A stretch of 64,000 nucleotides of DNA, from positions 12,323-76,322 of IMG/VR virus record IMGVR_UViG_3300047678_000276, one strand, 5' to 3'. The position numbers and the translations under genes are program-made. The stretch comes from a virus. The notes beneath the pieces were generated by a model. It was given only the letters and a program-made list of their open reading frames with translations, searched no databases and was not told where the DNA came from. Of the stretch, positions 7,137 through 40,933 are shown in pieces. Each line of letters opens with the position of its first letter. The stretch's first letter is position 1.

Positions 7137-7223
7137 TTTTTAAGTTCTGGTCAGAAACTTTCTATTGGTTGGCACTTACAGATCCAGGAAAGAAATAAAA
7201 AAAAGGAGAATGATCTCCTCTTT
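7137..7223 (+). other. Counter-oriented non-coding unit 1 (class-1 motif + GTTGGCAC..GATCCAGG + hairpin)
   Basis: 7154-7189 is 35/36 identical to 36965-37000; related copies at 17463, 23737, 29968, 33866, 36947, 40767. Confidence 0.75.
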
Positions 7224-7227
7224 TAAT

Positions 7228-7581
7228 TTATTTAAACATTTCCATTTGAGTTCCAATTCCTGTGAAGTCTGCAAGTTGCATTTCGAAAACCTCATCAATG
7301 AAACCTCCATACTGGTCTAGCATATCAGGATGATATAACCCGTCTTTATCAGCAACCCAAAAACCTTTCTCATAATCTTCCTTAATGAGCTTGGCTAGTT
7401 CTTTATGGTCTTTTTCTGTTGAGGCTAATTTTGGTTCGAACTGAATTGACTTCTCGCCGAACTTATCATACCAGTCTCTGGCCATCCAGTGTCCATCAGG
7501 GTCATTTCCGATTGATTCATTCTCTAATTGGAATAGTAATTCAGCTAGACCAATAAATTCTTTCATTGTGTATTTTTTCAT
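7228..7581 (-). CDS. Hypothetical protein
   Basis: ATGA overlap with the upstream gene suggests start at 7581. Confidence 0.6.
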   Translation of the reverse strand: MKKYTMKEFIGLAELLFQLENESIGNDPDGHWMARDWYDKFGEKSIQFEPKLASTEKDHKELAKLIKEDYEKGFWVADKDGLYHPDMLDQYGGFIDEVFEMQLADFTGIGTQMEMFK

Positions 7582-7799
7582 TTTAATTCTTTTAAGAGTT
7601 TTTGATATTTCTTTGTATTCATCCATTTAATAACTGTGGTCGCATTATGTCCGATATTTTTATCTCCGCTTACAGGATAATCAACCAGGATATAATCAGG
7701 CTTGTCAGAATTAAAAGACGCTGCCTGGATTATGCCTCTCTCTTTACGAAAGGGGTTATAAAAATCTATGCCGCTACTTATTGCAAATACTTTGTCCAT
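7578..7799 (-). CDS. Hypothetical protein
   Basis: ATG 6 nt after TCTAT. Confidence 0.65.
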   Translation of the reverse strand: MDKVFAISSGIDFYNPFRKERGIIQAASFNSDKPDYILVDYPVSGDKNIGHNATTVIKWMNTKKYQKLLKELK

Positions 7800-7815
7800 G
7801 TTTTAATAGAATGAT

Positions 7816-8055
7816 TTATTTGCGAAACTTAAAAATACGATCAACTAATTCCTGAGGATTGGTATGAAACAAGTGAACTGCATTCACCATTGGTATAGCA
7901 ACCGAAGCGTCCTCCTCAATTTCATCCAGGTGATAATAAACCACATGAATAGGATCCTTGGTCTCGCCTTTGTCGATGTAAATTCCTACACTTTCCTGGT
8001 CGATAGAAATTTCTAACTTTTCTTTTTTTCCGTTTATGATTACTTGTTTTCTCAT
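7816..8055 (-). CDS. Hypothetical protein
   Basis: ATGA-coupled to 8052-8384. Confidence 0.6.
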   Translation of the reverse strand: MRKQVIINGKKEKLEISIDQESVGIYIDKGETKDPIHVVYYHLDEIEEDASVAIPMVNAVHLFHTNPQELVDRIFKFRK

Positions 8056-8384
8056 GCTACCCAAAATATATCTTTAATTTCTTTATTTTTTATTGTGAAA
8101 TGAACCTCCACATCAATGAAGCGTGTTAGTGATTCATGTTGGTCTGTAATACTTTCAACATGAACCTTGCCGAATTTAACAGCTAGTTCAGTTTCAGGAT
8201 TTTCAACATAATCCTTTGATAGTTTCATTACTTTAAACTCCTCAATGCCAAGACTTACAAAAAACTCACTAAAGTCTTTTTGTGAAGGATGTTTAGCAAT
8301 TGAAATAATCTTGTTTTTAAGTTTATCAACCACTCCAAACAATTTAACTTCTTCTTCTTTTTTTAAAGGATAATGTCCAGCCAT
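8052..8384 (-). CDS. Hypothetical protein
   Basis: ORF with class-1 motif. Confidence 0.65.
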   Translation of the reverse strand: MAGHYPLKKEEEVKLFGVVDKLKNKIISIAKHPSQKDFSEFFVSLGIEEFKVMKLSKDYVENPETELAVKFGKVHVESITDQHESLTRFIDVEVHFTIKNKEIKDIFWVA

Positions 8385-8430
8385 GTTATTTTTATTTAAT
8401 AGAATGATTTGTTTATGAAACTTAAAAAGA

Positions 8431-8721
8431 TTATTTTGTTATAAGCAATTCAACTTCACTTGGCGCAACTTCAACGAAACCAAGTTTTTGAATATCTTTT
8501 TCAAATTCATATTCAGAAATGTTTTCAAAGAAGTCTGGATAAACTCTTAAGAACCCTCTCATTGTGTCAATGAAACAATCTACCATAACTCCCATGTAAG
8601 TATTGCTTATACTGTTATAGGTGTAAATAAATGATATAGTTGAATCTCTGTAGTGATGAACATTAAATACAATGTCCTTATTTTCTTTTACGATCTTCGA
8701 ATAATTTGGCTTAAATTCCAT
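8431..8721 (-). CDS. Hypothetical protein
   Basis: Start moved to MEFKPNY, downstream of the class-1 motif. Confidence 0.6.
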   Translation of the reverse strand: MEFKPNYSKIVKENKDIVFNVHHYRDSTISFIYTYNSISNTYMGVMVDCFIDTMRGFLRVYPDFFENISEYEFEKDIQKLGFVEVAPSEVELLITK

Positions 8722-8763
8722 GTTGTTTTTATTTAATAGAATGATTTGTTTGTGAAACTTAAA

Positions 8764-8976
8764 AACTAAACGTACTGGCACAGCGCTATCAAATGAGGGT
8801 GCAGTTCTCTAAGACAGTCCACTTACAGTATCGTGGAGATAACCTATAACTCAATGCTCTGAATTCAATCTTTGATAAGATCTCTTTCTATAGGTTGCTT
8901 CATGGAAGTGCCAAGCTTTCGAGTCAAATTATGTCTACCTATGCATTACCTCAGCACTGCACCAGTACGTTTAGTT
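8764..8976 (-). ncRNA. Candidate structured ncRNA (about 213 nt)
   Basis: 24-bp closing stem fully paired on the minus strand with three G-U pairs; nested inner stems; no convincing ORF. Confidence 0.65.
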
Positions 8977-9229: not shown

Positions 9230-10278
9230 TTATCTCTCTGCTTTATAAATGATTTGTTTCATTGTGCAATCTGTCAAATCGCTGTCAGGTCGCTTGCCTA
9301 AATATACAGGTTGAAATATAGCACCGCCTTTATAGGCATATAAATATCTTACTTCAACCAAGTCTCCAATTTCAGGTACGTCGTAGTTTGGAGAGATAGT
9401 TACCTTGCCCATAAATATCCTCTCTGAGCCTTCTATAAGCTCTAAGCCAACACTTCTTTTGGCTTTGGTAATGTTTGCCACAATGAATGTTGCAGTCTTT
9501 TGAAACTTGAATTTTAACTGGTCTCCGCCACTTGCTGGTCTACCATGTTTATAAGTAGCATTTTTCTTTTTAAATACAATCCCCTCTTTATTCTCCTTTT
9601 TGAGTTTGTCAAATAAAGCTCTTTTTTGTTCTGTGGTATAAGCTGTTTCAACAACTTGAATGTTCTCATCAAATTTTAAAGTTCCTAAAACATTTAACCT
9701 ACCAACACAAGGTTGGCTTTTCATATCATTGCCATTAAGAGATAGAATATCAAATACATATAATTTGTTTCCGATAATCTCTCCATCAAGAATGAAGTCT
9801 GCTGCGTGTGAACGCTCGCCGAGAACTGAATTGATAATTGTATCAGGTAATGGAACTTCTGTTCCTTTTTTGTTCAGACCAAAGATTTTTGGTCCAGTGA
9901 TAAGCATTCTTCTTTCGCCGTCTTGTTTTTCTTGAGCGATGTATTCGTCGTTTGTAATATATTCTTCCACGTCCTCAATAGTATTAAGGAGCTGTGGAAG
10001 AATAATAACTTCTTTAGAAACAACAGTTACATTAGAGAATTCTTTTTTTTTTCGCCTTCAGTGTAACCTTTTCTTAGCTGTTCTTTTAATTTGCTTTCAT
10101 AAACCTTGTCAGCCTCTTTTAAAGGTAAAGGAGTAGGAGTTTTTGTTCCAGCCGAAAGGTTGCTGCCTCTGCGACCATACTGAAAGTTAACCACAAAGCC
10201 ATCACCAGATTTTTCTAACTGGATATGGTATTCTTTGTCGCTGTTTCCTTCTTGAAAATAAAGTGATACGTTTTTCAT
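9230..10278 (-). CDS. WGR-domain ATP-dependent DNA ligase, interrupted by a frameshift at the A10 run (10043-10052)
   Basis: WGR-like SDKEY..QYGRRG..KGY (10027-10278); ligase motifs EKQDG, DGEII, FDIL, EGIVFK, KFK plus OB fold (9230-9970); -1 frame joins them via ..KEFSNVTVVSKEVIILPQLLN.. Confidence 0.8.
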
Positions 10279-10652: not shown

Positions 10653-11519
10653 TTATTTTAACCCCTGAAAAAGAAATGCTATTGTATCTACATTCCAACC
10701 ATTGCCAAGAGCTTTATATCTTGCCCCGTCGCTTACCATTGCTGTATGTCCTTCAGGAACGCCTTGAAGTCTTTCGTATTCAGTTGGAGTTAATTTTCTA
10801 ACTCTACCATCCTGGATAACTTTCTTTTGTTGATTACCTCCACAAACTGCTGTTAAGGTTTGGCATTTATGTTTTGTTGAATTAACACGCTTTAAAATAT
10901 CATGTCCATTGATTGCAAGTGTGGCGCAAACAACTTTATCATCGCCGTGGAATACAAATGGCTCTTTATAGAAATACTTCTCCGCCACAGTTGGCTCTAA
11001 TATATCTCCAAGAACCAAGGAGTTTTTTTCTGTTGGTAATTCTAACAATGGAATGTTGGTCCAGTATAATCTAGGACGACTTTGTGCCGAAAAGATCTCA
11101 GAATTGATTTGTATAGGCTCCACGCCGAGAATATCTGTGATAACTTGTTCCCATTGTTTTTTCATTACAACATTCTCCAAGAAGAAATACTTTGGCTTCA
11201 GTTCTTTTAATAATCGAACATATTCGAAAAATAATTTTGATTTCCCGTCAAACCCAGTATTAGATGAGATGGCAGGTGAAAAGCTTTGGCAAGGTGAACC
11301 GCCGATTAATAGATCAATCTGAGGGAGTCCTTGAGCTGTAACCTTGGTAACATCTCCTAATTGAACTGTTCCAGGAAAGGTGTTTTGTGTAACTTTAATA
11401 GAAGCTTTCTCGATCTCAGAAGCGAAATATTGCTTCACTTGGATTCCTAATCTCTGTAGAGCCAATTGGCCACAGCTAATGCCATCGAATAATGATAATA
11501 CGTTTATTGGTTCTTTCAT
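10653..11519 (-). CDS. DNA cytosine-5 methyltransferase
   Basis: VLSLFDGISCG, GGSPCQSFS, ENV, QSRPR, LGNGW motifs. Confidence 0.92.
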   Translation of the reverse strand: MKEPINVLSLFDGISCGQLALQRLGIQVKQYFASEIEKASIKVTQNTFPGTVQLGDVTKVTAQGLPQIDLLIGGSPCQSFSPAISSNTGFDGKSKLFFEYVRLLKELKPKYFFLENVVMKKQWEQVITDILGVEPIQINSEIFSAQSRPRLYWTNIPLLELPTEKNSLVLGDILEPTVAEKYFYKEPFVFHGDDKVVCATLAINGHDILKRVNSTKHKCQTLTAVCGGNQQKKVIQDGRVRKLTPTEYERLQGVPEGHTAMVSDGARYKALGNGWNVDTIAFLFQGLK

Positions 11520-13621: not shown

Positions 13622-13684
13622 GATTGTTTTTATATATGAATAGAAATAAAAAAGGAGAAACTTAAAAATTTCTCCTCAATTTTT

Positions 13685-14479: not shown

Positions 14480-14529
14480 ATAAAGATAGAAACAAAAAAG
14501 GAGAAACTTAAAAATCTCTCCTTTTAATT

Positions 14530-15456: not shown

Positions 15457-16299
15457 TTAAAACTTTAATAAAGGTATCAAGTGATTGTTGAAAGAATCAT
15501 CCGAACTATCAATGGTATGGCACATTCTTTTTAATTCCTGACAAGCCTTCAAAATCTTTCCTGAGCCACCAAAAGGGTCCAGCACCCAATCTCCAATCTT
15601 TGTCCCCTGAGCAACCAAAGTCTTAATCATTTCATAAGGCTTTGAAGTAGGATATTCTCTTAAGTCAGGAGTTAATTTAAAGTCCATTATCCATTGGTCA
15701 AGATTTTCAACCTTGCCTGACTTACTAAATACATAAATATGTTCCTCAGGCATCAAATACTTGCCCATATTCATGCGATTACCATTGCTCCATAGCTTTG
15801 TGTAGCTACCAATCTTATCGCATTGCTTAAGGCTTGTCTTATTGAATTGAGACATATATTTGTCATGTGCCGACTTGCTTGTCTTTCCTGAGGTGAACAT
15901 GAATAATAAAGGACTTACATCAGTTTTTAAAAGTCCTTCAAGTTTTTGAACAAATGTTCCAAATTCCTCAGGAGATATTGTGTCTCTAGCAAATAAATTT
16001 CTATTGCCACCTTTTTGACCTGCAGCTGAATATGGAATATCCAAGAAGATAAAATCAAATAAGTCCCCTTCTGAACTTATCCTATCAATAACTTCAAGGG
16101 AGTTTCCATGTTCGATTATTGCTTGCTCCGATACATATAAGCCTTTGCCCACACGTTGAATGCCTTTGCCTAGACTGTCATATACTCTCCCTCGAACAGT
16201 GGTTTTTGCGATTTCAGGAAACTTTGTATAGATTTCCTGCATTGTCATTTTATCATTGCTATTATTTAATAGCGCTAAGATTTTGCTTTTTAAACTCAT
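15457..16299 (-). CDS. N6-adenine/N4-cytosine DNA methyltransferase (beta order) with N-terminal HTH-like region
   Basis: FIFLDIPY (DPPY-like) before YPTSKP and VLDPFGGSG. Confidence 0.82.
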   Translation of the reverse strand: MSLKSKILALLNNSNDKMTMQEIYTKFPEIAKTTVRGRVYDSLGKGIQRVGKGLYVSEQAIIEHGNSLEVIDRISSEGDLFDFIFLDIPYSAAGQKGGNRNLFARDTISPEEFGTFVQKLEGLLKTDVSPLLFMFTSGKTSKSAHDKYMSQFNKTSLKQCDKIGSYTKLWSNGNRMNMGKYLMPEEHIYVFSKSGKVENLDQWIMDFKLTPDLREYPTSKPYEMIKTLVAQGTKIGDWVLDPFGGSGKILKACQELKRMCHTIDSSDDSFNNHLIPLLKF

Positions 16300-16373
16300 G
16301 GTTTGTTTGTTTGTTATATGAATAGAAACAAAAAAGGGAGAACTTAAAAATTCTCCATTTGTTTTTTAACTTT

Positions 16374-17123
16374 TTATTTAAGGACCTTCACCTTGGTAGG
16401 GAGCGTTCGAATTGCAAACCCTGTATCAAAAGCTTGTTGTTTGCCTTTTGTATTTTTAAACTTCAAACCAACAATAACACCTTCTTTGTCTAAGAAACGC
16501 AAGTCCGTTTCGTCTCCATCTATAACCTTAAAGCCTTCAAACTTTTTTGGTGGAGTGTCAAATACCATTGCTACCTTAATACCTTTCTTAAGCAACTCAA
16601 TTGATTTATCATGATTGTATTCTGAACGAGAAAATAAAAGTGAGTAATTTTTTGGCATTGCTTGTTCAAAGCGAAGATGATTTTTTGTATAATCATAGAA
16701 TTGAACATTTGGAAACAACTCAAAGATATTTTTGTTATCCTTAATTTTAAACTTCTCCCAACGAATATCAGAGGTTCCGTTTAAACGAATTGCCACATTA
16801 TCATTTTTGTGTCTCTTCTCAATTAAGATTAACTCTCTGTAGATCTGTTCCATAAAAGCCGTTCTGTCTGCAAGAAAATATTCTGTCTTATTTAATCTCG
16901 CACGTTCCACGCTTGTAAAGCGACCACGTCCTGCTCCAACTAAACACGAAGCAACGCAACCTGCAGATGCATGAGGACATATGTTAATGCCTTTTGAGTT
17001 TGCCGTATAAGGAGACATATACATGATATATGTTATCCAACCTTTTTTGAGACCTTTAATTGTTTTTGCGTCTCCATTGGCATTCAGTAATTTTGTTGGG
17101 ATGTAGTAATTTGTCTTTTTCAT
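16374..17123 (-). CDS. Gp88-like protein
   Basis: CPHASAGCVASCL, IRLNGTSD, FYDYTK, DGDETDLRF; start reassigned to MKKTNYY. Confidence 0.75.
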   Translation of the reverse strand: MKKTNYYIPTKLLNANGDAKTIKGLKKGWITYIMYMSPYTANSKGINICPHASAGCVASCLVGAGRGRFTSVERARLNKTEYFLADRTAFMEQIYRELILIEKRHKNDNVAIRLNGTSDIRWEKFKIKDNKNIFELFPNVQFYDYTKNHLRFEQAMPKNYSLLFSRSEYNHDKSIELLKKGIKVAMVFDTPPKKFEGFKVIDGDETDLRFLDKEGVIVGLKFKNTKGKQQAFDTGFAIRTLPTKVKVLK

Positions 17124-17650
17124 GTTTTGTTTTGGTTTATATGAGTATAGAAAGATATACGTATGAAACTTAAAAAGATTACTCTTCAACTTTATTTTCT
17201 ATCATGTAGATATACATTTCCATATCAGTCATGTGAAAATAGTCTATATCATTTTCATTAAAAAAATGAATTAACTCCTGTCTGTCAATTTCTCTATTCA
17301 CTCTTCTAAGAGCTTCTAAGTCAGGTAAAAGTTTGTATATTGCCATGATTTAAAAAAACAACCAGTTTGAGTGTGGAGAGCTATATTATCCCTTTCAATT
17401 CCCGATATTGGCTGGTTGTCTATTATATAGAAACAAACATAGGATAAACTTAAAAATAAAAGTTTTTAAGTTTTGATCAGGAAGTTTCTATATGTTGGCA
17501 CAAAATAAAAAAGGTGCCGAATTATAGGAATAAAAAAAGCCCCTGTTTCCAGGAGCTTCCTAATGATAGTCTACGCATTTGGCACTAGTTGCATAGTGGC
17601 AACCCATTTGCGGACAGTATCGACCCGCCGTTAAACCTTACATCGACTTA

Positions 17651-31108: not shown

Positions 31109-31161
31109 GATTGGTTTGGTTTATATAAGAATAGAATAAAATCCAGATAAAACTTAAAACT

Positions 31162-31452
31162 TTAATTTAAAACTTCAGAAAATATATATGCAGCAGTGTA
31201 TAATTCTATGCAATGATTAACTTCTTCAAGTTCATTATTGAACTTTGTTTGCATAAACTTTTTGTTTTTTTGAAGTCTGTTATAAATTTCAATCAATATA
31301 TTGTCAGGTTTCAAAGTTCTTTGTAAAAGCAATTGATAACTTTCGTCAAATAAGCCTTGCATAAAATCAATGTTTGTGATCTTGCCATCTGTTTTCTCTA
31401 TTAAAACATATCTGTCATAACCTTTGATAGCCGTTATTTGTAATTCTTTCAT
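31162..31452 (-). CDS. Hypothetical protein
   Basis: Class-1 motif. Confidence 0.6.
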   Translation of the reverse strand: MKELQITAIKGYDRYVLIEKTDGKITNIDFMQGLFDESYQLLLQRTLKPDNILIEIYNRLQKNKKFMQTKFNNELEEVNHCIELYTAAYIFSEVLN

Positions 31453-31494
31453 GATTGGTTGGTTTATATGATTATAGAATAACTAATAAGAAAC

Positions 31495-31725
31495 TTAATA
31501 AATAAAATCTTTAAGATGATTTACTGATTTAAGATGATTTACCAATTCTTGTTTTTCGTTTGGTGTTAGAGGAGAACCTGATATCCAAAAGTTTGGATAC
31601 ATACCCATGGCATCTATAGGAAGTCCGTGTTTAGAGTTTTCTTTTTCGAAAAGAAGTAAGGCCGCACCATGACTCCTGTCTAACCACAATTCATATCCGC
31701 CTAAGGTAATTTTTTCTCTGATCAT
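31495..31725 (-). CDS. Hypothetical protein
   Basis: ATG 6 nt after TCTAT. Confidence 0.6.
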   Translation of the reverse strand: MIREKITLGGYELWLDRSHGAALLLFEKENSKHGLPIDAMGMYPNFWISGSPLTPNEKQELVNHLKSVNHLKDFIY

Positions 31726-31754
31726 ATTAGAATAGATAAATTTATAGGGAGAAC

Positions 31755-32117
31755 TTAAAACTTTCTCCTCTTTTTTCCTTTAGCAAATTTCTCATACCAT
31801 TGCTTATTCATATCATCCCTCTTAATATGAATCTCAGGGAGATGTTCATGGTAGTTTCTAATTGGAATTGGTGGAGGTGCAAACATCTCCTTATTCTTTT
31901 GAATGATTTTATCCTGATTAATTTTATCTTGGTCAGCTTGTGGCAAATCCCCCATGCCGATAATCATTATCTCATGTTTTTTGCTCATTCTCGCAATTAA
32001 TTCAGCGTGCTTTAAACCCGCCCCTTCATCTTCGATAATAATGAGCTTAATGCCTTTTTTGTCAGTTTCCTCTATAAGCTCGCTAAGAGATTTTCCTGAG
32101 GGGTTTGTGTTTTCCAT
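31755..32117 (-). CDS. Hypothetical protein
   Basis: ORF ending in the next motif. Confidence 0.6.
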   Translation of the reverse strand: MENTNPSGKSLSELIEETDKKGIKLIIIEDEGAGLKHAELIARMSKKHEIMIIGMGDLPQADQDKINQDKIIQKNKEMFAPPPIPIRNYHEHLPEIHIKRDDMNKQWYEKFAKGKKRRKF

Positions 32118-32551
32118 ATTTTTACGTTTTCAAATTTATAATGTTTTGTACCTTTATCTTCTAAAAAATCAATCCTATTCTTAAATCGCTTATTCATTGT
32201 ATCAACAACTTTATAAACCCCATCCTTATGCCCCGCTCCTGAAATTTGAACTATGTCCCCATAATGAAACTCTCCGCCCCACCGTGCAATCATATCTCTA
32301 CTCATTGCAATCCACTTCTGTTCACTTGCCTTTCCAGGAATGATCTTGTACATTCCAGCAGTAACCAAAGGGTCAGAATCACATTGAGATGACACAGGGT
32401 AATACATTGTGGCTGTTACCTCATAAGTGTTCACCTTTTTAACTTCAGTGTTTGTACGCTTGAATATGAATGTTTTGAAGGTGTTGTGAGTTAGCTCATT
32501 TATGAAAAGTGATAGAGCTATGATGACTAAGGTGATTTTAATTTTTCTCAT
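32072..32551 (-). CDS. Membrane-anchored 3D-domain (MltA/RlpA-like) cell-wall protein
   Basis: N-terminal hydrophobic helix; VTATMY..TAG..IAMSRD..VDTMN..RIDF. Confidence 0.75.
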   Translation of the reverse strand: MRKIKITLVIIALSLFINELTHNTFKTFIFKRTNTEVKKVNTYEVTATMYYPVSSQCDSDPLVTAGMYKIIPGKASEQKWIAMSRDMIARWGGEFHYGDIVQISGAGHKDGVYKVVDTMNKRFKNRIDFLEDKGTKHYKFENVKIWKTQTPQENLLASL

Positions 32552-32596
32552 TGGTTGGTTGGTTTATATGAGAATAGAAAGAAACGGAGGGAGAAC

Positions 32597-32929
32597 TTAA
32601 AAATCCCCCTCAGTTAAATGATTTTCTTTCATCAAGCGAATAAATGTTTTACGAGCATTTTTGATGTTTGAAGATACTATACAATACTCATTTACCTTAT
32701 AAACTTTCCACCCTTTAAACCTCTCCCCCATATCAGCATTGTGATTTACAATAGCAGTAGCAAGATTAAATAATCTATCTGCCTTTAGCTTGTCCATCTC
32801 CTCAGGGGAGAGTTTTCTTGGCTCAGGCTCGTTATAACGTCGTTTTGGTGATGAATAGCTTGGCATAGAGTTTCCTCCCATCATCATAGCCATTGCCATC
32901 ATCATATACATACTTCCTTTTAAACTCAT
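32597..32929 (-). CDS. Hypothetical protein with Met-rich N-terminus
   Basis: Class-1 motif; stop in next motif. Confidence 0.6.
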   Translation of the reverse strand: MSLKGSMYMMMAMAMMMGGNSMPSYSSPKRRYNEPEPRKLSPEEMDKLKADRLFNLATAIVNHNADMGERFKGWKVYKVNEYCIVSSNIKNARKTFIRLMKENHLTEGDF

Positions 32930-32959
32930 GTTGTTTGGTTTTTATAAATTAATAGAAAA

Positions 32960-33538
32960 TTATTTTTTAGAACTTAAAACTTCATACTTAAATTTGTTTG
33001 CCTGAAATTTTACAAGATTACCAATTTCTCTGAATTCTCCGCTTATTTCAAAAACAGGCTTCCAAACATTTGTGCGACTTGTCTTTTGAAAAGTATCATA
33101 AGAGATACCGCTTCTAAATTCTAATGGCTCACTTACTTTTATAACGTCCCCTTCTTTTACTTTTGGCTTTGAAGTTCTATTGTTGATTTTCGCCCAACAA
33201 CGCTCTCTCCAATTCTTTGCCCATGTAGTTGAACTATCGTCGTTATCAGGAAGAGGAGTTAATAATTCTAAAATTCTTTTTGGACATTCACTTTGAACAG
33301 GTCCAGCGAATTCACTCATATCCTTATACCCAAAATTATCCCATGTTCTGCTATAAGTAAGCATATAAACAAGTGCAATAACTTCTCCTGTATCTTTCAA
33401 GCGAACTGCCATGTAAGCTGTCATTCGCTTTACAATAGCAATATCAAGCAATTCGTGGTTAGGTTCGTGTTTAAAAGCATCTCTGAAATAATCAGAAGGT
33501 GAAATGTGTTTTGGTTTATTGAATGTTGTCCAGCCCAT
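32960..33538 (-). CDS. DUF6927-like protein
   Basis: MGW..FGYKDMSE..GP...CP..IL.LLT...WR.RC. Confidence 0.7.
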   Translation of the reverse strand: MGWTTFNKPKHISPSDYFRDAFKHEPNHELLDIAIVKRMTAYMAVRLKDTGEVIALVYMLTYSRTWDNFGYKDMSEFAGPVQSECPKRILELLTPLPDNDDSSTTWAKNWRERCWAKINNRTSKPKVKEGDVIKVSEPLEFRSGISYDTFQKTSRTNVWKPVFEISGEFREIGNLVKFQANKFKYEVLSSKK

Positions 33539-33593
33539 TGGTTTATTTGTTTAATTGGTTATCTATTGTAATAGAACTTATTTGAGATGAAAC

Positions 33594-33803
33594 TTAAAAA
33601 CTTTTCAGCTTTTCATCAATCATTTTAATCCTTCGTTGATAGCTTTCAATATACCCTTGCATATCGTCCATCATAGCGAATTCAAGCCCCTCAACCGCAA
33701 TCGCTCTCAATTGCTCATAAACTTCCTTATCTGTTGGAATTCTGCCAAGATCCTCAGTCATGTATCCTTTAACTTTATCGAATCTTCTTTGTAAATCTTC
33801 CAT
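33594..33803 (-). CDS. Hypothetical protein
   Basis: Class-1 motif. Confidence 0.6.
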   Translation of the reverse strand: MEDLQRRFDKVKGYMTEDLGRIPTDKEVYEQLRAIAVEGLEFAMMDDMQGYIESYQRRIKMIDEKLKSF

Positions 33804-34178
33804 ATTTTGGTTTGTTGGTTTCTATTGTAATAGAACGAAATAACACAGAACTTAAAAACAAAAACTTTTTAAGTTTGGGGCCGAAAGTTTCTATTGGTTA
33901 GCGATTTGGGATCACCAGGAAAAAAAAGATCAAAAAAAAGGGGGAAATTAATCCCCTTCAGTTTTTTAACCTTGTCTGTCAGCTTTACGACGCAATGTGC
34001 GTTTATCTCTGCCACTCATAACCAATTGTGGACAACGAACCACTGAAGGACGTAAGATTGGTAAACGTGTTGCTGATTCAATTACTGCGATAAAGATTGC
34101 TAATAAAATTACTAATGTTTTCATGGTTTTGTTTGTTTTTATTGGTTTATATATGAATAGAACTTTTTTTGATGAAAC

Positions 34179-34463
34179 TTAAAAAATTCTTATTGTTTTT
34201 ATTACTCTTTTGTCTGCACTTGCATTTATTATAAATGGTCGTTTTGAAGTCCATTCGCTAAATCCAAGTGTTGCTCTTTTAATGACCGCCCATAAAGGCA
34301 CGTCCTCAACAAAAATCGTTTGTCTGTATATTGGTATCTTACCAAATAAAAGATAATCGAGATAAACAATGTTTTCACAAAATTCTTCTTTATCCTCATA
34401 TCCACGTACATAACGAAGATGAGTAACTAATTTGCCACAAAGGCGCTTTTTTAATAATATCAT
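34179..34463 (-). CDS. Hypothetical protein
   Basis: Coupled to 34466-34708. Confidence 0.55.
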   Translation of the reverse strand: MILLKKRLCGKLVTHLRYVRGYEDKEEFCENIVYLDYLLFGKIPIYRQTIFVEDVPLWAVIKRATLGFSEWTSKRPFIINASADKRVIKTIRIF

Positions 34464-34465
34464 AA

Positions 34466-34708
34466 TTATGCTCTATAAAATCTTACATAAGTTAAATCCT
34501 TTGTGTATTCAACACGCAACTGATTTCCTGGACCACCCAAGCCCCAATACGCTCCGCCTTTATCATAAGCCGAATCTGAACTCATTGGAACTTTTCTGTC
34601 AAAGATTTTTTTGTCTGTTGGCTTTTCTGAAGGTAAGTTTGAACCTCTGCCCATTGGCGCACCGAATTTGCAGTTAACAGGGTGAACGATTTTTGAAATT
34701 GCGTACAT
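34466..34708 (-). CDS. Conserved phage protein (GAPMGR..YDKGGAYWG)
   Basis: Class-1 motif. Confidence 0.7.
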   Translation of the reverse strand: MYAISKIVHPVNCKFGAPMGRGSNLPSEKPTDKKIFDRKVPMSSDSAYDKGGAYWGLGGPGNQLRVEYTKDLTYVRFYRA

Positions 34709-34759
34709 TTGATTTTGGTTTGTTGGTTTATATGAGAATAGAAAGAAAATGTCAGAAAC

Positions 34760-34972
34760 TTAAAGAATTAAAACTTTATAGTTATCAACTTTTTCATGTT
34801 CAATACCAAGCTTTGTTAACCCCTCACAAATGCGAACAGAATCCATGCTCTCAATCATCCAGCCTCTACCAGCTTTTAACCGAGCATCATCCACATCAAG
34901 CGCATTAAACGCCTTAAGCATTCGTAGCCAATTCGATTTGCCTTTTTCCTTTGGTGCTAATAATACATCCAT
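34760..34972 (-). CDS. Hypothetical protein
   Basis: ORF ending in next motif. Confidence 0.55.
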   Translation of the reverse strand: MDVLLAPKEKGKSNWLRMLKAFNALDVDDARLKAGRGWMIESMDSVRICEGLTKLGIEHEKVDNYKVLIL

Positions 34973-35188
34973 ATCTTATTTGTTTTTCTTTTTACGTTGT
35001 TCATTTGCGTATTCCTTTAGTCTTTTCTTTTCATAGAAATCTAAAAACTCCCCTTTTCTTTCTTTTCTTAAAAGGTCTTTAATTAGGTGGAAATACATGG
35101 TCGATTCGCCACGTGTTCTGAATGATTTTAAAATACTTGCTCTCATGGTTGGTTGGTTTATATGAATAGAAACAAATGAAGGGAGAAC

Positions 35189-35509
35189 TTAAGATTTTCT
35201 TCTCCCTTTTTCAATAATTTTTGCAGTCAATTCCTTATCCTGATTAGGATTATAAGGGTCTGAAATTTCATAGATTGCAAGTCTGCACATCAAGGCATTT
35301 AATTGGTCATCATTTAATTCAGCAGCTCTCTGGCCCACCTCAAATAAAATGTCCCCAAATATCTGCAAAGGAATTCTTAATGCAAACCCCTCTTTTGAGT
35401 ATTGTGCAATTTCTTTTAAAAGTCCAGGAGTGTTAACTCTCCACTGAAGTCCACTATCTTTTTCGACTTTGTCTTTGAATTGTGCTTTTCGCTTAGGTTC
35501 TTTTGGCAT
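35189..35509 (-). CDS. Hypothetical protein
   Basis: Class-1 motif. Confidence 0.65.
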   Translation of the reverse strand: MPKEPKRKAQFKDKVEKDSGLQWRVNTPGLLKEIAQYSKEGFALRIPLQIFGDILFEVGQRAAELNDDQLNALMCRLAIYEISDPYNPNQDKELTAKIIEKGRRKS

Positions 35510-35558
35510 GGTTGGTTGGTTTATATTAATAGAAAGGATTTAAGAGGAACTTAAAAAT

Positions 35559-35852
35559 TTACATATCCAAAAAGCTAAATAAGCTTGGATGAATTTCTCT
35601 TGCTTGTTTTTCAGAAATGCGTTTGCACTTCTCTCTTAAATAATCATTATGAACCGACGTAGAACCAACGCCTGAGTTTCTTGTGTAAAATACTGCTCCA
35701 ATGGCATCGTAATGAGCGCCATCTTTATTTATGCGCAATGTATCATCTAACACCGCAACAACGTTTCCTGAGTGATTTCCTGGATTCTTACGAGTCCCTT
35801 TATTTTTTTCAGTCTTATTTTCGTATTCTAAGAAAAATTTGATTCCGTTCAT
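35559..35852 (-). CDS. Hypothetical protein
   Basis: Start MNGIKFF after class-1 motif. Confidence 0.65.
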   Translation of the reverse strand: MNGIKFFLEYENKTEKNKGTRKNPGNHSGNVVAVLDDTLRINKDGAHYDAIGAVFYTRNSGVGSTSVHNDYLREKCKRISEKQAREIHPSLFSFLDM

Positions 35853-35914
35853 GATTTCTTTGGTTGGTTGGTTATATTGGAATAGAAACAATTCAAGGGA
35901 GAACTTAAAAACTC

Positions 35915-36139
35915 CTATAAAGGAAATGCTTTAATGATTGCCTTAATTTCTTTTTTATAGCCCATCATAGCACACTTAATAAAAAACTTACCATTCTCCT
36001 CTCTACCAAAACAAGTGCCTCCTAGTTGATTCATAATGATGTCATGAGCCTTTTGAGATACCTCAACTTGTGTATCATACTTCAACTTGAATGGTTGAGG
36101 GGTTATTTCGTTCATAAAATTTTGTCTTTCAATATCCAT
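35915..36139 (-). CDS. Hypothetical protein
   Basis: Class-1 motif. Confidence 0.6.
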   Translation of the reverse strand: MDIERQNFMNEITPQPFKLKYDTQVEVSQKAHDIIMNQLGGTCFGREENGKFFIKCAMMGYKKEIKAIIKAFPL

Positions 36140-36184
36140 GATTGGTTGGTTTTATAAATTAATAGAAAGATTATTGATTGAAAC

Positions 36185-36541
36185 TTAATAACCCGTAACA
36201 ATTATTCCTTGTCCTGATACTGATTGCTCACGTCCAAACGCATCCACAAAACGAATGAAGTTTGAACTTTGACTCAAAATTGAGTCTGTTACAAATGTTT
36301 GGTGGTCGCCATAATTTATTACCTCGACTGTGTAAAACTTTTTGCCGTGCTTTTTTGAATTTGCATAAGTTACGCCATTTAATGCGAACTTCGCCACAAT
36401 AGCAATGATTGCTAATGCGAATACTACTTTAAACATTATTCCAAAATTATTCATAGTTTTTTTGTTTTTTTTAAACGCATCATCAAACTCCTTATCAAAA
36501 TTTTCGAATTCTTTATCGAATTTATCCCAGTCTGTGTGCAT
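36185..36541 (-). CDS. Single-TM membrane protein
   Basis: Hydrophobic FGIMFKVVFALAIIAIVA; class-1 motif. Confidence 0.65.
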   Translation of the reverse strand: MHTDWDKFDKEFENFDKEFDDAFKKNKKTMNNFGIMFKVVFALAIIAIVAKFALNGVTYANSKKHGKKFYTVEVINYGDHQTFVTDSILSQSSNFIRFVDAFGREQSVSGQGIIVTGY

Positions 36542-36596
36542 TTGGTTTAGTTTTGTTGGTTATATGAATAGAAACAAATTGATTAAAACTTAAAAA

Positions 36597-36890
36597 TTAT
36601 TCAGCCATTACATGAGCAAATAAAAACCCCTCTCTTTTCATTGTTCCATACAACTCACTCAATTCTTTTTTTTGCTCTAAACACTCCTTAATGATATTGT
36701 TATTGCTTGTTGCATAACTACGCTCCTCTAATTTTTTCATCATATTCTCAACATTCCATTCCAAGCAAATAAAAACCTCTCCCATCATAATAGACTTAAC
36801 ATCCATAAATGGTGCATTGTGTTTTACAAATTCAAATGTTGATTTTGAAACACGTACATTTATAAGTTTATATTCGCTGATTACTTTCAT
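36597..36890 (-). CDS. Hypothetical protein
   Basis: Class-1 motif. Confidence 0.6.
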   Translation of the reverse strand: MKVISEYKLINVRVSKSTFEFVKHNAPFMDVKSIMMGEVFICLEWNVENMMKKLEERSYATSNNNIIKECLEQKKELSELYGTMKREGFLFAHVMAE

Positions 36891-37064
36891 GGTTGGTTGG
36901 TTTATTGTAATAGAATCAAATCCAGTTAGAACTTAAAAAGTATTTGTTTTTAAGTTTGGCCCCCGAAACTTTCTATTGGTTAGCACTTACAGATCCAGGA
37001 TAAACAAAAGCGAGTCGGAACCACCCGACTCGCTACCTTTAGAAACCAAGAAACCAACTACACT

Positions 37065-37241
37065 TTATTTCCCCTTGCTCACCACTTTGTCAAGAATTTT
37101 GACGTGGTGAAAAATATGATGTTCTGACTTGCCATGCTCCGCCATGTGTTCTTCATAGTGAGTGCTTTCAGAGTCATTCATATACTCCAATACTTTTTTT
37201 AATGCTTTTATTTCTTTTGGTGTTAATGTGATTGTTTTCAT
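37065..37241 (-). CDS. Small His-rich protein (58 aa, not in the ORF track)
   Basis: ATG 6 nt after TCTAT; ..HYEEHMAEHGKSEHHIFHH.. Confidence 0.55.
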   Translation of the reverse strand: MKTITLTPKEIKALKKVLEYMNDSESTHYEEHMAEHGKSEHHIFHHVKILDKVVSKGK

Positions 37242-37270
37242 ATTGGTATAGAAAGATTATTGATTGAAAC

Positions 37271-37708
37271 TTAAAACTCATCTAACACATTTGTCATTTT
37301 AATGATATAATCAGAATGACACTCTGACACTTCAGTTATTGCCTTAATCAGAATACAATAGAACTTTTCATTATAAAATTCCATTATGTTTTTTGGAAAC
37401 TTTGAAGGCATGACATTATTAAGCATATCAGTTAATAACTTATGAGGTTTTCTATATTCGTTCAAATAATCTACTGGACCCCAATGATAATTAATAGATA
37501 TATTATATGGTTGAGTTTCATCAAAAATTATAAATACCCTTGCATCTATTGAAGAATTTTTTGGTACATAAGAAAATACTCCATCTCCCTCTCCATACTC
37601 CATTGGATAGCCTGGATGAATGTGAGTACCCTCAAGTATATTAAGAGCATTTGAAATGTTCTTAAATAACTCTTTTGTTCTTGACTTTTCTAGTGTGGTT
37701 GTTTTCAT
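37271..37708 (-). CDS. Hypothetical protein
   Basis: ATG 6 nt after TCTAT; stop in next motif. Confidence 0.65.
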   Translation of the reverse strand: MKTTTLEKSRTKELFKNISNALNILEGTHIHPGYPMEYGEGDGVFSYVPKNSSIDARVFIIFDETQPYNISINYHWGPVDYLNEYRKPHKLLTDMLNNVMPSKFPKNIMEFYNEKFYCILIKAITEVSECHSDYIIKMTNVLDEF

Positions 37709-37736
37709 GTTTGAATAGAAAGGAAATGATCGAAAC

Positions 37737-37997
37737 TTAAAAATCTTTTGCAGTTACCAATTCCAATGCCATGTACAATCCCAATGGCACATTGATTTGC
37801 ATAACATCAACCGAGTTCATCATTTGGTCTGCAATCTTAACGCTATTGAAAAACTCAAACTTCATCTCCTTAATGTATTTCAAACCTGTTTCAGTTACAC
37901 CTGTTGCTTTTTCTCCTTCATCACCAACAAGCTGACGAATTGTTAAGAAATGGCTTAACTGTTCTTTTTTATGAATGAATATCGAAACTGTGATCAT
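37737..37997 (-). CDS. Hypothetical protein
   Basis: ATG 6 nt after TCTAT. Confidence 0.6.
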   Translation of the reverse strand: MITVSIFIHKKEQLSHFLTIRQLVGDEGEKATGVTETGLKYIKEMKFEFFNSVKIADQMMNSVDVMQINVPLGLYMALELVTAKDF

Positions 37998-38012
37998 ATG
38001 GTTATAGATAAT

Positions 38013-38291
38013 TTATTTGTTCAAACTTAAAAACTTCTCCTCATTCAATAAGTCAAACTTTCCTGTCCACCCTTTTATCTTTGTCTCTCCCTCAGGATTA
38101 CCAATGGCAATAATATCTTCGTTCTTAATGAACTCCCCAAGCGAATGATGCCCATAAAGAAAATGAACCAAAACTCTGTCCTCGTATACCTTTGTGATAT
38201 TGGTAACTTGTATTTCAGTTGGCTCACCTCCGTGGTAATTAAATCCAAATGCGATAAAATCCCCTTCTTTTAAATCTGAAACTTTTTTCAT
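38013..38291 (-). CDS. Hypothetical protein
   Basis: Start MKKVSD after class-1 motif. Confidence 0.6.
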   Translation of the reverse strand: MKKVSDLKEGDFIAFGFNYHGGEPTEIQVTNITKVYEDRVLVHFLYGHHSLGEFIKNEDIIAIGNPEGETKIKGWTGKFDLLNEEKFLSLNK

Positions 38292-38325
38292 TGTTGGTTG
38301 GTTTAAATGAATAGAAACAAAATGA

Positions 38326-38550
38326 TTAGAACTTAAAACTTTCAAAGTCAATTATTGTCCAATTAATTTCCCCGTTCTCCCAAGCCTCATTACCATCATT
38401 CTCAGCGTTCAGTATCTCTCTTGCTGAATCCATTAAGGCAGTCATCAAATCATCCTCAGAGGTGCTATCAGGCACTTCCACGTGATAAGGGTCAGTCCCT
38501 ATGTATTCGCCGTTATGAACGAAACGTATATCTACTTTATAAACAATCAT
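38326..38550 (-). CDS. Hypothetical acidic protein
   Basis: ORF ending in next motif. Confidence 0.55.
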   Translation of the reverse strand: MIVYKVDIRFVHNGEYIGTDPYHVEVPDSTSEDDLMTALMDSAREILNAENDGNEAWENGEINWTIIDFESFKF

Positions 38551-38786
38551 TTTATTTTTGTTTAATTGAGAATGGAAACGCACCTTTGCCTTTTAAGCAA
38601 CACACACGAATGAAAGACTTTGCTTTCTTGTCATCTCCACCGATGAACATTGTGTTTGTTCCGCCTGAATAGTTTGCTAAAACTCCGTAGTTGTTTGCTT
38701 GTTGAATGAATGCTAATTTTGACATGGTTTATTTTTTTATGGTTTATAATTTAATAGAATGATTTTTGAGGGGAACTTAAAAAGAA

Positions 38787-39128
38787 TTATAATGAAGTTA
38801 GTTGACATTTTTCCCAATAAGTAGGTATAGACCTTTCTAATGTTTTCAAAAGTTCTTTACAAAATTTATCTCCCTTTTTTGCTTTAGACAACATAATAAA
38901 ATGAGAATAGATAGCATTTCTAATAAGAGGGTTTAACTCTTTCATTTGCTCATCAGTTAAATGTTTAACATGAAAGTTCTCTATATTGTTTCTAACTGAC
39001 AAAGCCAAACATTTTGCTACAAATTCTAATACGACTAATTCATCATCAGACAAAAGAGATAAATCGCTAAGCTTCTTTTTTGTTTTTGCTATATCTTTTT
39101 TAAGATTTTTTATGAAGTCTTTTGACAT
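38787..39128 (-). CDS. Hypothetical protein (RN.IENFH...L.D.QMKELN)
   Basis: Class-1 motif. Confidence 0.65.
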   Translation of the reverse strand: MSKDFIKNLKKDIAKTKKKLSDLSLLSDDELVVLEFVAKCLALSVRNNIENFHVKHLTDEQMKELNPLIRNAIYSHFIMLSKAKKGDKFCKELLKTLERSIPTYWEKCQLTSL

Positions 39129-39181
39129 GGTTGGTTGGTTGGTTTAAATGAATAGAAAGAAAAATCCAGGAACTTAAAAAA

Positions 39182-39382
39182 TTATTTCTTAACCTCAACT
39201 CCCATAGATTTATAATACTCCTCACTCGTTAATGGCTTGGCATATGCTCTATGTTTGCAGTCAGGACACTCATAAGAACCATGAAGTCCAATTCCAGCTT
39301 GCCACTCTCCAATGGTTGCATATCTTCCGCATCTGCATCGAGCGTGTGAGCTTGGCATTAAATTGTTGTTGTGTTTACTCAT
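39182..39382 (-). CDS. Small zinc-ribbon protein (CRCG..CPDC)
   Basis: Class-1 motif; two Cys pairs. Confidence 0.6.
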   Translation of the reverse strand: MSKHNNNLMPSSHARCRCGRYATIGEWQAGIGLHGSYECPDCKHRAYAKPLTSEEYYKSMGVEVKK

Positions 39383-39480
39383 GGTTGGTTTGGTTTATCT
39401 ATTGTAATAGAATAAAAAAAAGGGAAACTTAAAAAAATTTCCCTCTCCCAGATAAACAAAAATTTATAAACCCCTCTCCC

Positions 39481-39717
39481 TCAATTCTCAAACATTGGAA
39501 CCGCCACATCAATAATAACAATATCACAATGATGGTCAACCAAATCATCTTGACGATAATTCACAATATCTCCCTCCACAAGCCCATTATCATCCAAAAC
39601 ACTCCCTCCAATAGCAAACTTCTCCCCAGTCATAATATCCTTTAAAATGTGAGTTAAATCACTCCAGAGAAAATTAATCTCTCCCTTTTTGGCTCTTAAT
39701 AGAATTGCTTTTTTCAT
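39481..39717 (-). CDS. Hypothetical protein
   Basis: Class-1 motif. Confidence 0.6.
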   Translation of the reverse strand: MKKAILLRAKKGEINFLWSDLTHILKDIMTGEKFAIGGSVLDDNGLVEGDIVNYRQDDLVDHHCDIVIIDVAVPMFEN

Positions 39718-39971
39718 ATTGGTTGGTTTCTATTGTTATAGATAAATAACCCACCAAAACTTAAAAACTCTCCCTTTGCCATTTGCCCACCTTTTTGGAT
39801 CTACACAAACTCCCACCAAAAGCGCTAACATATAGAAACAATAAGCCATAAACTTAAAAACTCTCCCCAATATAAAGTTATAAACATTCTGTCAACAAAA
39901 AAACCCCAAGCGATCTGCAAGGGGTTTTTAAAACTTAAAAAGAAAGGGGAATTTTAACTCCCCTCACTTTA

Positions 39972-40550
39972 TTAATCTTCGATGATGTAATTTGTACCTT
40001 TGAAAGTAAGTGCGATAATGTTTGTAAGTGTGATTGTTAAGCGAAAGAAATTATTTGCCTCGTCAACCAAACCACGACCCGCTGTCTTTTTTTCAGCGAA
40101 GTAAGCAGGTGCAAACAAATTCTTTGCGATTGCATCCTCCTTAGAGATTTTTTTGCCTTCATTGTATAACCATACATTTACTTTTGCCTTTTTTTCTTGG
40201 TCGCATACCAAATACTCAACATTTGCATTTTTGTTCATAAAGGCTAAACAATTTGAGCCTTCAACAAAAGTCTTTCCACTCATTTCCTGACTTTCAAAAC
40301 CTACTTCATCCCCTTGCTTCTCTAAACGTGTATTAACACGATTTTCGTAATTAGAGCCGATTGTGATGTTTCTGAAAGTTAATTTTTGAAGTAAGCGTTT
40401 ACCCTTTACTACACGACTGCCATATTCATCAGTGAACGCTACAATGTGAGCAAATGTTGTACCCTTGTGCTTTAATAACATTTCACGTAATTCAGCAAGT
40501 GTAATTGTTTTTTGATTTTTTCTTTTACTTGTACGATTGATTTTAGCCAT
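39972..40550 (-). CDS. Hypothetical protein, first gene of the leftward array
   Basis: Preceded by two class-1 and one class-2 promoter motifs. Confidence 0.75.
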   Translation of the reverse strand: MAKINRTSKRKNQKTITLAELREMLLKHKGTTFAHIVAFTDEYGSRVVKGKRLLQKLTFRNITIGSNYENRVNTRLEKQGDEVGFESQEMSGKTFVEGSNCLAFMNKNANVEYLVCDQEKKAKVNVWLYNEGKKISKEDAIAKNLFAPAYFAEKKTAGRGLVDEANNFFRLTITLTNIIALTFKGTNYIIED

Positions 40551-40933
40551 TTTTTCTTTTTTTTAAAGGTTTATATTGTTTGTTTATCTATTGTAATAGA
40601 ACGTTATTTGTTTGAAACTTAAAAACTTTTTTGTTAACCTTATTGCAATAATTATACGAATTAGATACAAATAAGTTACAAAGTAAATTGTTAAAATTTC
40701 AGATTGTCAATTAACGTGTTATCTATTGTAATAGATATAAACCCACCCAAAACTTAAAAACTTTTCTTTTTAAGTTTCACCCAAAAACTATCTATATGTT
40801 AGCACAAAAAAATAACCACATAATGATCAGCGCCAACATATAGAAACAAAAAACAATAAACTTAAAAACTCCTTTTTTTTAAGTTCATATAAAGATTATA
40901 TCTATAACAATAGAAACCAATCAAAACCAAAAT

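Follow-up and report, generated by a model that had tools for sequence, protein, structure and literature searches.

The 64,000-nucleotide stretch analysed here (the window) comprises bases 12323-76322 of a 76,322-bp IMG/VR virus contig, IMGVR_UViG_3300047678_000276, from a moss metagenome (33% G+C; CheckV completeness estimate 41%). Between about 2 and 41 kb, nearly every small minus-strand gene has a copy of one phage promoter motif upstream, and at the boundaries of the gene blocks there are further copies that lead into no gene. We propose that these gene-less units are real non-coding boundary promoters, which fire or park a polymerase head-on against the preceding gene block, a reading to which we give close to, though somewhat less than, an even chance. 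Control of polymerase traffic, rather than a functional small RNA, appears to be their most likely role.

In the proposed mechanism, each block would have one unit immediately ahead of its first gene promoter. About two thirds of the units stand back-to-back with this promoter, at a constant helical face, and aim at the one-way terminator of the preceding block; where blocks diverge, two gene-less promoters face each other. The bound or fired polymerase would confront the oncoming traffic, so that read-through into the next block would be stopped and/or the faced block damped, and the promoter before every gene would provide heavy trailing traffic at these boundaries. The proposal is built on the anatomy of the units, their conservation, the one-way terminators that they face and their helical phasing.

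Gene-less promoter units in the window

The phage promoter consensus, TTTTTAAGTT-N13/14-TTCTAT, has 87 exact copies in the window, versus 0.04 expected from shuffles, and about 100 on the contig; copies were scanned for with the pattern TTTTAAGTT-N10-18-TCTAT. Seven + strand copies without a gene start at 7138, 17464, 23738, 29969, 33867, 36948 and 40768, each 12-13 bp behind a leftward copy. They continue TCTAT-(T/A)(G/T)GTTRGC(R)C, with GCGA in the copy at 33867, and every unit in the window carries GATC in its tail or spacer. The octamer GTTRGCRC is nearly confined to such units on the 76-kb contig (8/9 occurrences on the + strand and 2/3 on the - strand). The longest ATG-initiated open reading frame (ORF) starting within 200 nt has 0-23 aa in the five units listed of the six + strand units that face a terminator, the unit at 7140 having been omitted as a duplicate of that at 36950. 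In these terminator-facing units a hairpin begins 30-60 nt past TCTAT. Positions 7154-7189 and 36965-37000, although 30 kb apart, are identical at 35 of 36 bases, with a single mismatch (G vs A). To the left of the window, the contig has three more copies (1433+, 1527- and 8447+).

An earlier note, made from the sequence alone, had described the back-to-back copies, the minus-strand copies (now placed at 39832-39859 and 40840-40867, the latter facing the 40768 copy at a distance of 44 nt), the conserved tail with GATC, the want of a gene, the nearby hairpin ending the oncoming gene block and the near-identity of the two distant copies, and all of these were found as described. Its periodic spacing of 3-6 kb was not: the intervals between units in the window are irregular (10.3, 6.3, 6.2, 3.9, 3.1, 2.9 and 0.9 kb), and in one relative (L113) the units are 0.4-1.5 kb apart. 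The + strand tRNA promoter near 12.3 kb, which had been taken to fill the largest gap, belongs to another motif class (GTAAC-N17/18-CGTATAAT) and leads into tRNA genes. The features of the window units are as follows.

7138-7189 (+): putative boundary promoter 1; TTTTAAGTT..TCTAT at 7138-7165, tail TGGTTGGCAC..GATC(7181)..CCAGGA
7101-7129 (-): predicted back-to-back gene promoter, first of the leftward block (gene 6596-7066)
7199-7224 (-): predicted intrinsic terminator of the oncoming block (gene 7228-7626); terminator-like on the + strand too
17464-17533 (+): putative boundary promoter 2; promoter 17464-17491, spacer GATC 17475, tail ATGTTGGCAC..
17427-17455 (-): predicted back-to-back gene promoter, unit 2
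17534-17561 (-): predicted terminator of the oncoming block, unit 2; A-run on the + strand side only
23738-23807 (+): putative boundary promoter 3; promoter 23738-23765, tail TTGTTGGCGC, GATC 23780 and 23786
23700-23728 (-): predicted back-to-back gene promoter, unit 3
23808-23840 (-): predicted terminator of the oncoming block, unit 3
29969-30034 (+): putative boundary promoter 4; promoter 29969-29996, spacer GATC 29980, tail TGGTTAGCAC, GATC 30015
29932-29960 (-): predicted back-to-back gene promoter, unit 4
30035-30058 (-): predicted terminator of the oncoming block, unit 4
33867-33937 (+): putative boundary promoter 5; promoter 33867-33894, tail TGGTTAGCGA, GATC 33910 and 33928
33830-33857 (-): predicted back-to-back gene promoter, unit 5
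33938-33958 (-): predicted terminator of the oncoming block, unit 5; terminator-like on the + strand too
36948-37008 (+): putative boundary promoter 6; promoter 36948-36976, tail TGGTTAGCAC..GATC(36992)..CCAGGA; 35/36 identical to unit 1
36910-36938 (-): predicted back-to-back gene promoter, unit 6
37009-37034 (-): predicted terminator of the oncoming block, unit 6
39767-39859 (-): putative tandem (co-oriented) boundary promoter; promoter 39832-39859, 67-nt tail ATGTTAGCGC..GATC(39798), running directly into the gene promoter 39738-39766 (-)
40768-40867 (+ and -): putative convergent boundary-promoter pair, 40768-40795 (+) and 40840-40867 (-), with 44 nt and one GATC (40825) between the TCTAT boxes, at the divergence of the leftward and rightward gene arrays
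40731-40759 (-): predicted first gene promoter of the leftward array, back-to-back with the + strand promoter at 40768
40877-40905 (+): predicted first gene promoter of the rightward array (gene 40934-41230), back-to-back with the - strand promoter at 40840-40867

A distinct start region within one promoter class

Relatives were identified by pattern scans, which yielded two IMG/VR contigs with the same architecture and 65 metagenome loci with at least three promoter copies each, the metagenome loci coming from lakes, sediments and subsurface samples. The pooled set from about 70 related loci comprises 131 gene-less and 510 gene-leading promoters; although it was de-duplicated, the loci share ancestry, and the counts drawn from it are not phylogenetically independent.

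Both classes have the upstream T-run and TTTCTAT in common, and the total promoter length is 26/27 nt in 130 of the 131 gene-less and 508 of the 510 gene promoters. They differ after TCTAT, where gene promoters have an AT-rich start (TCTAT-AACAATATAAAC) and the gene-less class a G-rich one (TCTAT-(A/T)GGTTRGC). Gene-leading copies read TCTAT-AACAATAT(A/G).., and position 7 after TCTAT is a purine in 99% of the 510 pooled promoters; on this contig, 27 of 88 gene-leading promoters have the A of a leaderless ATG there. These two facts make position 7 the most likely transcription start of the gene promoters. The remaining genes have the leader AAACCAACCAACCATG, without a Shine-Dalgarno sequence. 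In the gene-less class position 7 is G, and with the start predicted there the invariant block would span the discriminator and the start site and end at about +2. The G/C fraction of the discriminator region is 0.44 in gene-less versus 0.18 in gene promoters. Past the conserved block the sequence is variable, with an excess of G over C in the first ~24 nt (G 0.23-0.45, C 0.12-0.19), and the median longest ORF is 24 aa after gene-less units versus 88.5 aa after gene promoters.

A candidate for the recognition of both classes is encoded just left of the window, where an extracytoplasmic function (ECF)-type sigma factor of 219 aa lies at contig positions 10768-11427 (-) (= L154:1156-1815), with a TIGR02937 profile match of 66.5 bits (cut-off 42.9) and the Pfam domains Sigma70_r2 and r4_2. 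Its orthologues (31-88% identity) accompany the motif in related loci, and the motif is wholly missing from the locus of a distant sigma relative (L157; 27% identity, 44% GC). The promoters show ECF-type features, namely bipartite -35 and -10 boxes at a fixed spacing and a start ~6-7 nt past the -10 box, and a candidate cognate sigma gene is present; from this co-occurrence we infer that the factor recognises them. The units would thus probably be transcribed by the host core polymerase carrying the phage sigma factor. A search for a T7-type polymerase gene gave no match on the contig, but the control search for that family was equally blank, which leaves this negative without weight.

Sigma-70-like sites (TTGACA-17-TATAAT) are not enriched (91 versus 82 expected; 65 versus 78), and the right-hand part of the contig is without the main promoter motif. 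Other identities for the tail were considered and rejected. Some copies contain TTGGCAC, as in a sigma-54 promoter (TGGCAC-N5-TTGC), but no TTGC follows and the variants TTAGC and TTGGCT are common; a Bacteroidota -33/-7 promoter fits neither in spacing nor in bases. Mimicry of GGTTGGATCACCTCC, the 3' end of 16S rRNA, was a further idea, and it found no support.

One-way hairpins and a possible RNA product

A strong hairpin is present in 75 of 80 divergent units and starts 30-50 nt past TCTAT in 59 of the 75. Its two strands are clearly unequal. The 75 stems contain 84 non-Watson-Crick pairs, of which 79 are G.U in the oncoming mRNA and 5 in the counter RNA; an A-run (at least 6 of 9) lies upstream of the hairpin in 62 units, and a T-run downstream in 5. 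By this strand bias, the hairpins are predicted to terminate the oncoming block only and not to stop the counter RNA. In the window, four of the six faced terminators are of this one-way kind, and those at 7199-7224 and 33938-33958 look bidirectional.

This polarity raises an important question: could the RNA product itself be the effector, as a dispersed family of antisense or small RNAs that pair with the 3' mRNA of the preceding block, with phage leaders or with host RNA? One-way terminators would let counter transcripts run antisense into the last gene of the preceding block, and the two units that face bidirectional-looking hairpins (7140 and 33869, 2/6) could give RNAs of 65-90 nt. We nevertheless consider an RNA effector unlikely. 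Beyond about +2 only GATC is conserved, and its position shifts between orthologues, while the stretch from the start to the A-run (median 26 nt) folds no better than shuffles (mean z -0.1), and 70 of the 75 units have no terminator of their own. Orthologous units have different genes downstream, and a conserved antisense target is therefore lacking. A search of the known RNA families in Rfam matched none of the units and found only tRNAs. On such grounds (own-strand U-run in 5/75, no conserved sequence or fold, no Rfam match) a discrete cis-antisense small RNA of the lambda oop type was rejected, and the tiny RNAs ending at the hairpin that had first been suggested are likewise disfavoured, the hairpins being one-way, the counter-strand U-run rare and the 26 nt before the hairpin unstructured. 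A test for complementarity to phage mRNAs had also been suggested, and GGTTGG is indeed complementary to the common leader of this phage, AAACCAACC; but GGTTGGC is retained in relatives with other leaders (AAACGAAAC), and most of the motif lies before the predicted start or reaches just up to it, so that anti-leader pairing was rejected as well.

A separate observation concerns the 3' untranslated ends of block-final genes, which contain stretches complementary to 5' leaders of the same phage. In this phage the stretch GTTGGTTTCTTGGTTTC matches the leader AAACCAACC in this way, at ~37040-37070 (-) and after other block-end hairpins; in the relatives L150, L012 and L019 the stretch is CATAGTTTCGTTTAT, complementary to the leader plus ATG.

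Enrichment of GATC

GATC is present in 105 of the 131 gene-less units, versus 23 expected from shuffles, with GGATC(C) as the most enriched word, and in 13% of the gene promoters. The sites are concentrated in the promoter spacer (-20 to -11; 28% of divergent units) and at +10 to +30, and one to three of them fall within the expected polymerase footprint. Orthologous units keep GATC but shift its place between tail, spacer and hairpin loop.

Retention at a changed place would suit a position-tolerant reader of DNA, and the units could therefore be DNA-level elements in which the promoter merely opens or marks the DNA, whether as methylation-gated switches, as R-loop or replication primer sites or as sites of a GATC-specific nickase or binding protein. 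The G-rich non-template strand of the first ~24 nt favours R-loops, the units are found both along and against the direction of the genes, pairs that hold as many as three GATC sites cluster at gene-array divergence (L151, L113), and the phage encodes N6/N4 and C5 DNA methyltransferases. Conservation of the full promoter and its phasing with a partner are, however, left unexplained by such an element, which we judge quite unlikely, and about 15-20% of the gene-less units have no GATC at all. Dozens of origins per genome would be unusual, and primers aimed at a divergence point would send forks head-on into transcription. The PF01555 N6/N4 methyltransferase (window 15457-16299) has only weak matches to DpnA and N4 enzymes, and a search of solved structures for its specificity returned weak, uninformative matches. 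Chi-like or T5-type nick sites were considered only; they would need no promoter. Within the boundary-promoter reading, methylation-sensitive control is our guess for the role of GATC.

Arrangements and helical phasing

The gene-less promoters occur in three arrangements: divergent units facing a hairpin (86 units), convergent pairs 40-76 nt apart at the divergence points of gene arrays (30 units) and tandem units 36-72 nt upstream of a gene promoter (22 units). Back-to-back pairing is almost exclusive to the gene-less class, which takes part in 80 of 82 non-redundant back-to-back promoter pairs, versus 2/82 for pairs of two gene promoters. The gap between the -35 boxes of a pair is composed of A/T tracts and clusters at 11-13, 20-23, 32-33 and 41-44 bp; a Rayleigh test on the gaps >16 bp yields p ~5e-11 at a period of 10.3-10.5 bp.

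Such phasing is also what helper or architectural promoters might display, in which a parked, long-lived polymerase activates or shields its back-to-back partner, through cooperative binding, shared A/T-tract upstream elements or the supercoiling of divergent transcription, with no effect on the preceding block. In each of the three arrangements, the first gene promoter of a block has a gene-less promoter upstream, and the rarity of gene-gene pairs and the helically quantised A/T gaps speak for the same idea. The unit sequence GGTTRG matches the lambda PR discriminator GGTTGC at 5/6 positions, as a resemblance only, and in E. coli that discriminator is among the main factors that make open complexes long-lived (bioRxiv 10.1101/2022.04.18.488589); G/C-rich discriminators, moreover, make promoters dependent on negative supercoiling (PMC8422995). 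Yet gene promoters inside the blocks function on their own, a gene-less partner is missing from some block-first promoters as well, and the phasing may merely reflect the need of both promoters for in-phase upstream T-tracts. We hold this explanation to be quite improbable too; it largely overlaps the boundary-promoter reading, and sequence alone cannot separate the two.

The tails of tandem units share an additional motif, CTCTCCCC-(T)GG-N-GATC (L113:3641, 4025 and 8143; L127:2150; L085; L090; L118), which is inverted (GGTGGGAGTTTGTG) in the tandem unit of the window (39767-39831).

Conservation in related loci

The GGTTRGC start region persists in related genomes: relatives with very different leaders and a sigma factor only 31-36% identical retain TCTAT-A(G/A)GTTGGC. 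In orthologous units both promoters and GGTTRGC are conserved, while the flanking cassettes are swapped, and in the orthologue alignments (u19462, u46191) similarity is lost at or just past the terminator. Non-functional leftovers, that is, remnants of inverted promoter cassettes at recombination joints (shuffling of the PeSL type) homogenised by gene conversion, would sit at just such joints, where relatives have different neighbouring cassettes, and could include two copies 30 kb apart that match at 35/36 bases, but they are highly improbable, since the (A/T)GGTTRGC start, the GATC enrichment, the arrangements and the phasing recur in lineages with 31-36% sigma identity, and remnants would not swap their start region for one invariant sequence in every copy.

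In the relative L113 (Ga0114918_10006743, 4700-8830), almost every gene of the rightward arm forms a seemingly insulated cassette of its own, made up of counter promoter, gene promoter, gene and one-way terminator, and unit density varies widely among lineages. No close cultured relative was found by megablast or tblastn (several proteins) against 50,697 phage records. The search for a host through genome contigs gave 67 single chance matches and one true 1.5-kb relative in a genome bin, and did not lead to a host. A look-up of RNA runs for window positions 29500-39400 listed none. In four DNA contig runs, the only joints were of the repeat type and had short sides, and two other samples contained diverged relatives.

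Weighing of the boundary-promoter reading

Several facts weigh against boundary promoters. Some terminators, such as those at 3075-3102, 26526-26553 and 39944-39965, directly precede a gene promoter, without a unit. Co-oriented units (16%) and units in convergent pairs with no intervening terminator (22%) are not explained by a pure backstop to the preceding terminator, nor does the boundary-promoter model predict the enrichment of GATC. The analogy with lambda PR depends partly on region 1.2 of sigma-70, through which the effect acts in E. coli and which ECF-type sigma factors lack. The metagenome scan, in addition, required GTTRGC, so that the invariance of these six bases is partly built in, although the preference for A/G on its flank, the GATC sites and the architecture were not imposed by the scan pattern, and the IMG/VR relatives were recovered by the gene-promoter pattern as well, with the same tails.

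Among the options that the earlier note had raised, a stalled complex or an insulator has gained from the present results, as the anatomy fits: the promoter is complete and conserved, nothing past about +2 is conserved in the manner of a product, the unit stands at the head of a block, and its spacing is helically phased. A more elaborate version can be envisaged, in which a dedicated promoter-derived boundary element holds a long-lived polymerase (lambda PR-like GGTTRG), gated by GATC methylation. The complex would wait behind the first promoter of each early block, in helical register with it, and serve as an insulator or shut-off that can be switched, for example by release or activation once replication leaves GATC unmethylated; in a variant, the G-rich start would form R-loops that prime or mark the DNA. 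We regard this version as doubtful. That no known feature class explains the units, as the earlier note had it, is too strong a statement, because both a design of unidirectional terminator plus antisense promoter (PMC4731013) and head-on collisions at gene ends (bioRxiv 10.1101/2022.10.23.513370) have been described.

Antisense or boundary promoters in cassette arrays are thus already known, and it is the present combination of features that is well defined, widely conserved and undescribed; a literature search found no paper describing the TTTTTAAGTT motif or the boundary module, the search for the motif giving unrelated papers. If the units fire, this phage family would possess a reusable transcription-unit 'bookend', in which a one-way terminator is followed by a gene-less counter promoter and this by a gene promoter, the two promoters being set at a fixed helical register, a part of a kind that synthetic biologists have built independently and that has so far not been described as a conserved natural module. 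It would offer a natural system for programmed polymerase collisions and insulation in dense arrays of one-gene cassettes, it would show how a discriminator sequence can split one promoter class into productive and non-coding subclasses, and it would possibly link GATC methylation with the control of promoters in uncultured phages, of a lineage that is widespread in metagenomes of lakes, sediments and moss. For annotation, the implication is that gene-less promoter motifs in phage genomes need not be errors or small-RNA genes.

Comparison with known systems

Among the closest systems are natural antisense promoters at the 3' ends of genes and, as the nearest engineered counterpart, the part of Brophy and Voigt (2016, PMC4731013), in which an antisense promoter behind a unidirectional terminator represses the gene upstream to a degree proportional to the strength of the promoter, via polymerase collisions and antisense RNA, and which performs best with unidirectional terminators. 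The order in the phage is the same, namely gene block, one-way terminator and a promoter predicted to fire back through the terminator. In contrast to the synthetic part, the phage promoter is a dedicated subclass (GGTTRGC start plus GATC), stands back-to-back and in helical phase with the gene promoter that comes next, and has tandem and convergent forms as well. In the single-molecule study of Wang et al. (bioRxiv 10.1101/2022.10.23.513370), head-on collisions were needed against read-through at a hairpin boundary, and trailing polymerases completed termination. The phage blocks likewise offer heavy co-directional traffic and a hairpin; where that system has a real convergent gene and a bidirectional terminator, however, the phage would use a gene-less promoter 30-45 nt away and a one-way hairpin.

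The gene-leading promoters resemble the PeSL (early promoter and stem-loop) cassettes of T4-type phages, which, in the excerpts of Arbiol et al. (2010, PMC2839356) used here, have early promoters of host sigma-70 consensus that lead into genes, at joints of modular shuffling. As in those excerpts, the phage promoters lie in dense arrays of one-gene cassettes with the upstream stop codon in the AT-rich part, stem-loops overlap the -35 box, and cassettes are swapped at joints where the gene content of relatives differs. The phage promoter is, unlike theirs, not of the sigma-70 type, and its gene-less units lead to no start codon; the same excerpts describe no PeSL subclass that is gene-less, counter-oriented and marked by GATC and a start region of its own. 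In many gene promoters here, the -35 box TTTTTAAGTT forms the loop of a hairpin that encloses the promoter, and a T-run follows the hairpin; terminator and promoter are fused in this way in PeSL cassettes too. The gene-less units adjoin stand-alone terminators. The TAA within the TTTTTAAGTT box is often the stop codon of the upstream gene (e.g. 4879-4881).

14496-14525, 13652-13677, 16337-16356, 21190-21224, 27264-27294, 30331-30356 and 39416-39449 (-): hairpin-wrapped gene promoters

Phage promoters without a protein product, some of them directed against an operon, include T7 phiOL and phiOR, lambda oop and P22 sar, which are present in 1-2 copies per genome and have defined products or roles in replication or packaging. 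The units described here differ from these examples in being present in at least 12 copies per 76 kb, at block boundaries, and in having no terminator of their own.

With regard to the sigma factor, the nearest database relatives are 'sigma-W' genes of crAss-like phages. The crAss-like systems are similar in having an ECF-type sigma gene in the early region; here it goes together with a bipartite motif of fixed spacing before nearly every early gene. The identity is only 23-31%, and the link between sigma factor and motif in the present phage comes from their co-occurrence only. The paper on the crAss-like phage phi14:2 reports no common motif upstream of early transcripts. Together with the leaders without Shine-Dalgarno sequences, the crAss-like relatives of the sigma factor hint at a Bacteroidota host.

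Second promoter class and neighbouring genes

A second promoter-like class, GTAAC(T/A)TTT-N-CGTATAAT (in general form GTAAC-N17/18-CGTATAAT), has 13 convincing copies among 14 pattern matches on the contig. It precedes the tRNA-Met/Glu cluster and the sigma gene and is also present in the right-hand part, with further copies left of the window.

12317 (+): second-class promoter
11994 (-): second-class promoter
40679 (-): second-class promoter
52006 (-): second-class promoter
57380 (-): second-class promoter

Upstream of the sigma gene, the two motif classes are combined in a hybrid. The second class is possibly read first, by the host polymerase, and we infer that the phage sigma factor would then read the TTAAGTT/TCTAT class. 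Immediately upstream of second-class promoters there are two copies of TGTGGATTTATCC, left of the window (contig ~8420-8440 and ~9700-9720), which could be a binding site for a regulator.

The C5 cytosine methyltransferase gene lies in the window at 10653-11519 (-). From its base composition, the 76-kb contig should have ~58 CCGG sites, and it has none (0); GGCC, GCGC and CCWGG show no depletion. The weakly annotated early proteins comprise a 246-aa nucleotidyltransferase resembling ATP-dependent ligases and capping enzymes, a NUMOD1-domain protein and two GP88-family proteins.

9230-9970 (-), 2226-2954 (-), 16374-17189 (-) and 48689-49936 (+): weakly annotated early-region genes

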